Below are positions 25,569 to 26,112 of a DNA stretch of 64,000 nucleotides, piece after piece. Source of the DNA: Escherichia coli (GTDB taxonomy: Bacteria; Pseudomonadota; Gammaproteobacteria; Enterobacterales; Enterobacteriaceae); NCBI RefSeq assembly GCF_003790525.1, contig NZ_CP033635.1. One strand, written 5' to 3'. The notes under the pieces were generated by a model, which was not told where the DNA came from, made no database searches, and saw only the letters and a program-made list of their open reading frames with translations. Each line of letters starts with the position of its first letter. Positions within the stretch are counted from its first letter, which is position 1. The translations under genes were made by a program, and so were the position numbers.

Positions 25569-25945
25569 GAAGCTGACCAGACAGTCGCCGCTTCGTCGTC
25601 GTCCTCTTCGGGGGAGACGGGCGGAGGGGAGGAAAGTCCGGGCTCCATAGGGCAGGGTGCCAGGTAACGCCTGGGGGGGAAACCCACGACCAGTGCAACA
25701 GAGAGCAAACCGCCGATGGCCCGCGCAAGCGGGATCAGGTAAGGGTGAAAGGGTGCGGTAAGAGCGCACCGCGCGGCTGGTAACAGTCCGTGGCACGGTA
25801 AACTCCACCCGGAGCAAGGCCAAATAGGGGTTCATAAGGTACGGCCCGTACTGAACCCGGGTAGGCTGCTTGAGCCAGTGAGCGATTGCTGGCCTAGATG
25901 AATGACTGTCCACGACAGAACCCGGCTTATCGGTCAGTTTCACCT
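25569..25945 (+). ncRNA. rnpB: RNase P RNA component (M1 RNA), about 377 nt
   Basis: Sequence begins GAAGCTGACCAGACAGTCGCCGCTTCGTCGTCGTCCTCTTCGGGGGAGACGGGCGGAGGGGAGGAAAGTCCGGGCTCCATAGGGCAGGGTGCCAGGTAACGCC and ends ...CGGTCAGTTTCACCT, matching E. coli M1 RNA. Confidence 0.95.
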
Positions 25946-26112
25946 GTTTTACGTAAAAACCCGCTTCGGCGGGTTTTTGCTTTTTGGAGGAGCGGAAAGA
26001 TGAATGACTGTCCACGACGCTATACCCAAAAGAAAGCGGCTTATCGGTCAGTTTCACCTGTTTTACGTAAAAAACCGCTTCGGCGGGTTTTTGCTTTTTG
26101 GAGCATAGTGTA
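25897..26112 (+). repeat. About two tandem copies (102 and 114 bp) of the rnpB 3' repeat, each ending in an intrinsic terminator
   Basis: gatgaatgactgtccacgac recurs at 25897 and 25999; cggcttatcggtcagtttcacctgttttacgtaaaaa(c)ccgcttcggcgggtttttgctttttggag recurs; partial third start gatgaataaat at 26114. Confidence 0.85.
25962..25990 (+). terminator. Rho-independent terminator of the rnpB primary transcript (duplicated at about 26066-26094)
   Basis: aaaacccgcttcggcgggtttttgctttttgg: GC stem with T-run. Confidence 0.85.

Follow-up and report, generated by a model that had tools for sequence, protein, structure and literature searches.

The stretch of DNA analysed here (the window; 64,000 nucleotides from Escherichia coli) carries rnpB, the gene for the RNA component of RNase P (M1 RNA), with garK on one side and the convergent yhaC on the other. 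The same arrangement is found in strain SC516, which is 100% identical to the window across the region and in which rnpB is annotated. The predicted rnpB promoter ends 8 nt upstream of the M1 5' end. Downstream of the gene lies a short array of direct repeats (Table 1), the first unit of which begins within rnpB itself. The preliminary description of this DNA had proposed that about 50 nt of the rnpB end are duplicated together with the terminator; Rfam and the repeat search agree with this and put the actual overlap between gene and first unit at 49 nt. The spacer that closes the repeat unit is 12 nt long.

Table 1. Features of rnpB and its 3' repeat array, in window coordinates.
Feature	Position	Strand	Basis or content
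Sigma-70-like promoter candidate of rnpB, GTGACA-17-TATACT	25533-25561	+	consensus match only, 10/12
rnpB, RNase P RNA (M1 RNA), class A	25569-25945	+	Rfam RF00010, 318.6 bits, model 1-367, full-length
Repeat unit 1, 102 nt	25897-25998	+	last 49 nt of M1, 3' trailer, T1 terminator, spacer GGAGGAGCGGAA
71-aa ORF through both units, judged spurious	25898-26113	+	ORF list
12-bp core CTTATCGGTCAG, copy 1, inside M1, unoccupied in the window	25926-25937	+	pattern match
T1, intrinsic terminator, 12-bp hairpin and U tract	25953-25986	+	terminator scan; fold -19.4 kcal/mol, z = -4.3
Repeat unit 2, 114 nt, sole extra unit of the strain	25999-26112	+	sequence alignment, repeat search
12-nt insertion GCTATACCCAAA, unit 2 only	26019-26030	+	alignment of unit 1 with unit 2
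12-bp core CTTATCGGTCAG, copy 2	26040-26051	+	pattern match; copy of the M1 tail TTTCACCT directly after
T2, weakened terminator copy and U tract	26067-26099	+	fold -13.0 kcal/mol, z = -1.7
Partial third unit start AGATGAATAAATATCTACGGT, 21 nt	26113-26133	+	15/21 identical
yhaC, AT-rich, convergent, bounds the array	26167-27354	-	ORF list; annotated as YhaC family protein

The periodicity of the array is evident from several sides. The repeat search returned an 84-nt direct repeat (25906-25989 and 26020-26103; 90% identity without gaps, spacing 114) and a 21-nt block, AGATGAATGACTGTCCACGAC, at 25896, at 25998 (100%) and at 26113 (71%). In a self dot-plot of 25850-26150, diagonals appeared at offsets of 114 (48 shared 10-mers) and 102 (12 shared 10-mers), compared with a maximum of 4 and a mean of 0.07 shared 10-mers in 1000 dinucleotide-preserving shuffles. 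The unit lengths of 102 and 114 bp and the coordinates proposed earlier were reproduced both by these offsets and by the alignment, in which the two units, aligned with one 12-nt gap, are identical at 93 of 102 positions (91%); this gap and the accompanying substitutions correspond to the substitution/insertion that had been ascribed to the second unit. The partial third start is also present, being 71% identical over its 21 nt. With just two units, set apart by an indel, the array of the window escaped Tandem Repeats Finder.

Unit 2 departs from unit 1 at several places. After the insertion, unit 2 reads AGAAAG, where M1 has AGAACC (substitutions at 26035-26036), and AGAAAGCGG in unit 2 replaces AGAACCCGG of unit 1. 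According to the Rfam alignment and the established structure of M1, the stretch altered in this way is the 3' strand of P4, which is universally conserved. Since the insertion and the two substitutions break the P4 strand, the extra unit is unable to serve as the M1 3' end; judging by its sequence, unit 2 amounts to a pseudo-3'-end that M1 cannot use. The right half of unit 2, comprising the tail and the terminator, is nearly identical to the native one.

It is also important to consider the terminators. T1 is a characterised terminator (PMC3643576). Its hairpin has five G-C pairs, one G-U pair closing the loop and an A-U extension, and this G+C-rich hairpin is followed directly by a U tract. 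In T2, a C-to-A change creates an A-G mismatch that interrupts the stem, and the consensus terminator scan of the window flagged T1 only. Thus, the two consecutive terminators of the preliminary description stand insofar as a hairpin and a U tract occur twice, but the second is a weakened copy and not an exact one. The T1 hairpin folds at -13.9 kcal/mol on the minus strand as well; preceded by an A tract and followed by a T tract, it could also terminate on that strand and so serve the convergent yhaC too. In homologous arrays, a strict hairpin finder gave too low a terminator count, unit 1 included (37 of 46), and no conclusion was drawn from it.

Tandem repeats at this place have a long history. 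Reed and Altman reportedly described, in PNAS in 1983, 113-bp tandem repeats in the 3' flank of the K-12 rnpB gene, and this original description is said to have pointed to the repeat ORFs as well. In the K-12 strain MG1655 (our locus L001), Tandem Repeats Finder detected 3.5 copies of a 113-bp unit (96%) immediately 3' of rnpB. The order there starts with the native unit, after which come three internal units, all with the insertion seen in the window, then a right-half fragment and the same terminal stub, AGATGAATAAATATC. The third internal unit of K-12 (the fourth overall) has a decayed terminator and a REP/BIME insertion (L001, ~3200-3340, minus strand), and strain WEC carries the transposase of IS621, a member of the IS110 family, at the place of the K-12 REP/BIME (L004, 7003-8001); the array of the window contains neither a REP/BIME nor IS621. 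Window unit 2 is 97.1% identical to the K-12 internal units over 105 nt (positions 1-105), the last spacer of the window, CATAGTGTA, is the counterpart of the last K-12 spacer, and the terminal fragment is common to K-12 and single-unit strains. One unequal exchange between right halves would interconvert the alleles of the window and of K-12. Overall, we conclude that the rnpB 3' tandem repeat already known from K-12 is present in the window as an ordinary short allele. It had been suggested that the window has fewer copies than K-12, and this was borne out: it has one internal unit, compared with three internal units and a fragment in K-12.

Strain dependence of the copy number, also anticipated, was evident from a comparison of 5,426 complete E. 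coli genomes, in which between none and eight internal units were found. The probe used for this, 41 nt long and specific to internal units, matched 3,669 of the 5,426 genomes at 8,277 places, with one to eight matches per genome and a median of two. Among 60 evenly spaced genomes, one unit was present in 18, two in 12, three in 27 and four in 3. About one third of E. coli genomes, such as those of WP3-W18-ESBL-07 (L003) and E69, have no complete internal unit, which means that the extra unit is dispensable. A separate observation concerns DH5alpha, two assemblies of which carry three (NZ_CP026085.1) and two (NZ_CM135829.1) internal units; this difference reflects either a real instability of the array or assembly collapse.

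The rnpB tail is also a site at which mobile elements have been inserted. In EH10-18-47, similarity to the window breaks off within the M1 tail, and 289 nt further on there is a gene for a tyrosine integrase. This integrase or a 78%-identical relative adjoins rnpB in 19 E. coli genomes, and the accompanying genes are a YagK/YfjJ gene and those for a serine recombinase, a flagellin and a flagellin repressor. The rnpB islet of these strains is the flk genomic islet, which Feng et al. reportedly located, in 2008, between yhaC and rnpB. Judging from the papers that cite the original article (PMC3378880, PMC5422975), the islet was described in E. coli H3, H35, H36, H47 and H53 (Feng et al., J Bacteriol 2008), and our literature search came upon rnpB as an integration site only via citations of this islet.

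Comparison of both islet ends in strains ECC-1470 and TUM1887 allowed us to define the attachment sites. attL reads ...AGAACCCGG-CTTATCGGTCAG-cttcaac..., while attR reads ...ttcctga-CTTATCGGTCAG-TTTCACCTG and continues into the terminator and the remaining repeat units. The block of identity between attL and attR is thus exactly CTTATCGGTCAG, 12 bp long; this core lies within the last 20 nt of M1 and recurs in every repeat unit. By its insertion in E. coli, the islet swaps the M1 tail GGTCAGTTTCACC for GGTCAGCTTCAAC and separates T1 from rnpB. Set against the M1 5' end GAAGCTGACC, the surrogate tail turns a G-U pair of P1 into a G-C pair; no terminator-like hairpin was seen after the surrogate tail. 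Repeats similar to GTGATACA on both islet arms look, from their sequence, like arm-type integrase sites. Copies of the flk islet were located at L002 12426-14133, L005 19977-29015 and L006 19977-28470. Its integrase (L005, 20287-21684) is co-oriented with rnpB, which raises the question of whether read-through from rnpB drives integrase expression.

In other E. coli strains, this junction holds a second islet type, which lacks flagellin and encodes an integrase, a primase-helicase family protein, a serine recombinase and a zinc-ribbon protein. An example, with a tyrosine integrase, is found in E. coli YZ22PE67 (L128, 16030-24000), and the junction occurs in about 11 more genomes. Left arms of a related kind adjoin the core of rnpB itself in Citrobacter, Enterobacter, Erwinia psidii and Rosenbergiella, whereas in three species they adjoin an internal core: that of unit 2 in Cedecea sulfonylureivorans and Erwinia mallotivora, and that of unit 4 in Enterobacter sp. 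Bisph1. In Cedecea sulfonylureivorans, both arms flank a 3-kb cargo within the unit 2 core, and past the far arm come the tail and terminator that were displaced; the cargo encodes two immunity proteins along with a PAAR protein and an S-type pyocin/Cytotoxic-domain toxin. We also noted that the islets located in the core of a downstream unit (L029, 4563-7572, Cedecea sulfonylureivorans; L007, 1514-3278, Enterobacter sp. Bisph1) have no integrase, and that their cargo comprises PAAR, S-type pyocin/Cytotoxic-domain toxins and immunity proteins of the DUF7683 and colicin types.

In complete E. coli genomes, all detected islet-arm junctions, about 30, overlap rnpB itself and none reaches the internal-unit insertion, although most of the strains with those junctions do carry internal units. 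Several arrays of other species end at or just past the core; these breakpoints were cases read by eye only, an ungapped script being confounded by small indels. Such a clustering of array ends and islet junctions at the core points to site-specific recombination as an additional force. Taken with the copy-number polymorphism and the REP and IS621 insertions, the integrase islets at the 12-bp core support the earlier suggestion that the array is a recombination hotspot.

Copies of the M1 3' end are by no means limited to E. coli. We searched one genome per species with the native rnpB end and covered at least 120 loci. Among the matches listed, extra copies downstream of rnpB were present at about 40 of the 107 loci with enough flanking sequence, and four further loci had extra copies visible at contig ends. 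The copies occur in at least 16 named genera of Enterobacterales, from the Enterobacteriaceae and the Erwiniaceae: Escherichia, Citrobacter, Kosakonia, Cedecea, Lelliottia, Phytobacter, Pluralibacter, Superficieibacter, Atlantibacter, Buttiauxella, Raoultella, Pantoea, Erwinia, Winslowiella and Izhakiella, along with several "Enterobacter sp." strains. Salmonella enterica subsp. diarizonae and many Enterobacter species had no copies among the matches listed.

Internal units share a common architecture across this range. The matches listed include 66 distinct internal units, drawn from about 40 species; in 65 of them, the distance from the left block to the core exceeds that of rnpB by 12-13 nt, Atlantibacter sp. 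RC6 being the sole exception. The inserted segment can be aligned across genera, and P4 has the same C-to-G change. A homologous insertion and a P4 change shared across genera indicate that the internal unit is old or that it has spread. An observation in its own right is that the 18-nt left block GATGAATGACTGTCCAC (window 25999-26016) is at least 90% conserved in internal units from at least 16 genera. The 12-nt insertion next to this block, on the other hand, shows about 50% divergence. Pure neutral drift of a duplicated stub leaves the conservation of the left block unaccounted for.

In 33 complete internal units from other genera among the matches listed, the 60 nt after the core are a median of 93% identical to the unit 1 of the same array, compared with a mean of 69% identity to other species; the unit's own unit 1 is the best match in 24 of the 33. 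The right halves are thus in concerted evolution with the rnpB tail of their own species.

We also considered a coding role of the units, for small basic peptides, and a role as a structured small RNA that would modulate M1 maturation; we regard this as highly improbable. Every Escherichia unit does have an ORF and a GGAG(G) Shine-Dalgarno-like motif in the spacer; the K-12 ORFs are 37-38 aa long with GGAGG 8 nt upstream, and in the window the frames are fused into one ORF of 71 aa. This ORF matches no Pfam family and has no PGAP annotation in the identical region of SC516. ORF length varies with copy number and is set by unit length, 102 and 114 being divisible by three and the 113 of K-12 not. 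Moreover, of 74 homologous units from other genera among the matches listed, 29 have an ORF of no more than 9 codons, and only 12 of the 74 have a Shine-Dalgarno-like motif, which is confined to Escherichia and a few others; neither the frame nor the start signal is conserved among homologous loci. The ORFs of the array, such as that at 25898-26113, had been called spurious in the preliminary description, which is also how they are best read here. For a small RNA, one might point to the terminator hairpin with which each unit ends, as the 3' ends of small RNAs do. However, RNAalifold applied to 21 internal units from different genera found compensatory changes nowhere outside the terminator stem, the left-hand pairs being all invariant and the covariation term amounting to -0.54 kcal/mol. 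No promoter-like site was found within the units by the consensus scan, and no Rfam family reached its threshold for the repeat unit. Permissive Rfam matches (rnk leader, CRISPR repeat, RsmY) were rejected as weak and driven by the terminator hairpin. Overall, both the small-protein and the structured-small-RNA readings are unsupported.

Here, we would also like to comment on the neighbourhood of the array. The yhaC-yhaB block (window 26100-28700) has a G+C content of 27-37%, compared with 50-56% in the gar genes; within it, yhaC has 27-35%, and its product matches no Pfam family. The block is largely deleted in WP3-W18-ESBL-07. From its composition, it looks like horizontally acquired DNA beside an integration hotspot. 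Elsewhere in the window, at 44825-44865 on the minus strand, there is a borderline Rfam match to the small RNA ES036 (CssrF), with 38.4 bits against a gathering score of 37.6.

Considering all of the above, we believe it quite probable that the window carries a short array allele, consisting of the native unit, one extra unit and a 21-nt stub, which arose when the rnpB end was duplicated and which unequal recombination has since maintained and resized, and that its extra unit combines a pseudo-3'-end with a weakened back-up terminator. Units would be gained or lost via unequal homologous recombination or replication slippage in the right halves, which are identical over about 70 nt. Exchange in the right halves would leave unit 1 native, let internal units keep their insertion and make the right halves evolve in concert. 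In this strain, the only likely activity of the extra unit would be that of a second, weaker, fail-safe terminator; T2 may act on RNA polymerase that has run past T1 of the very strongly transcribed rnpB towards yhaC. The second copy of CTTATCGGTCAG also makes the extra unit a potential secondary attachment site.

This last property invites another reading, namely that the extra units are spare landing pads (secondary or decoy attB sites) for rnpB islets, retained since insertion there spares the rnpB tail and terminator. The flk attL/attR block does lie inside M1 and in every copy, and the E. coli islet does replace the M1 tail and strip T1 from rnpB. The 3-kb islet of Cedecea sulfonylureivorans sits with both arms in the core of unit 2, and left arms are found at internal cores in Erwinia mallotivora and Enterobacter sp. 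Bisph1; in internal units, the left block and the core are more conserved than the neighbouring sequence. However, this direct support comes from three genera and does not include E. coli, in which the junctions, about 30, are all at rnpB. The internal copies differ from the native site immediately to the left of the core, the conservation could come from gene conversion against rnpB, and the same data also fit a passive use of the duplicated core. Host-level selection for a decoy site is, moreover, speculative, and we consider this reading unlikely. Even less probable, in our opinion, is that the extra units are scars of integrative elements, that is, fossil attR junctions left after deletion of the element body. 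The real attR at this locus does have the fitting layout of element arm, core, native tail and terminator, and the right arm of the islet is a diverged copy of the rnpB 3' end that begins with AGATG like a repeat unit; besides, among the matches listed, the right halves of 9 of the 33 internal units are closer to the native tail/terminator of another species. Yet the islet arm has the native spacing, with 30-31 nt from AGATG to the core and no 12-nt insertion, and carries GTGATACA-like repeats that the tandem units do not have, and none of the sampled islets has an arm of the internal-unit type. Head-to-tail units with spacers that are uniform within a species suggest duplication and unequal crossing-over; independent deletions would not give such a pattern. 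A narrower proposal, the origin of the left half of internal units from the attP arm of an islet, was rejected in view of the native spacing of that arm, its lack of the insertion and its GTGATACA-like repeats.

Several known systems invite comparison with the array, the K-12 rnpB repeats among them. These repeats share with the window the rnpB-yhaC locus, the anatomy of the unit (M1 3' end, terminator, spacer) and the insertion in internal units; they differ in that the window has one internal unit, no REP/BIME and a C-to-A mismatch in the T2 stem. The att duplications at tRNA and tmRNA genes are alike in that the 3' end of a stable-RNA gene is duplicated and the copy holds the crossover core, and rnpB is itself a target of the flk and primase-helicase islets. 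However, the copies in the window abut, with no element or non-spurious ORF between them, and the duplicate begins 30 nt upstream of the core, contains a 12-nt insertion and is arranged in an array of fixed period. The tandem fail-safe terminators T1-T2 of rrnB resemble our case in having two successive hairpin and U-tract signals after a strongly transcribed RNA gene; unlike in rrnB, the second terminator of rnpB is a by-product of duplication, is weaker and varies in number between strains. The flk islet, finally, lies in the rnpB-yhaC interval as well and makes use of the 12 bp found in each repeat unit, but the window does not have it, and it is no repeat but a mobile element that carries an integrase, a flagellin, a repressor and an invertase.

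For annotation, our results mean that ORFs of the array should not be called and that assemblies may collapse or expand it. What goes beyond the known K-12 feature is the presence of the module (left block, 12-nt insertion, integrase core, tail and terminator) downstream of rnpB across genera, with an integrase core in each unit. It is tempting to suppose, although we hold this only as a tentative and somewhat doubtful idea, that this is an old, Enterobacterales-wide and partly non-neutral module, the units of which might be secondary attachment sites as well as exchangeable tail-terminator cassettes for rnpB-targeting tyrosine-integrase islets and might thereby buffer an essential ribozyme gene against insertion. 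The cargo of such islets is flagellin phase variation, PAAR-pyocin toxins or a primase-helicase. If followed up, rnpB would offer a tractable case of an essential non-coding RNA gene coexisting with the mobile elements that insert into it.
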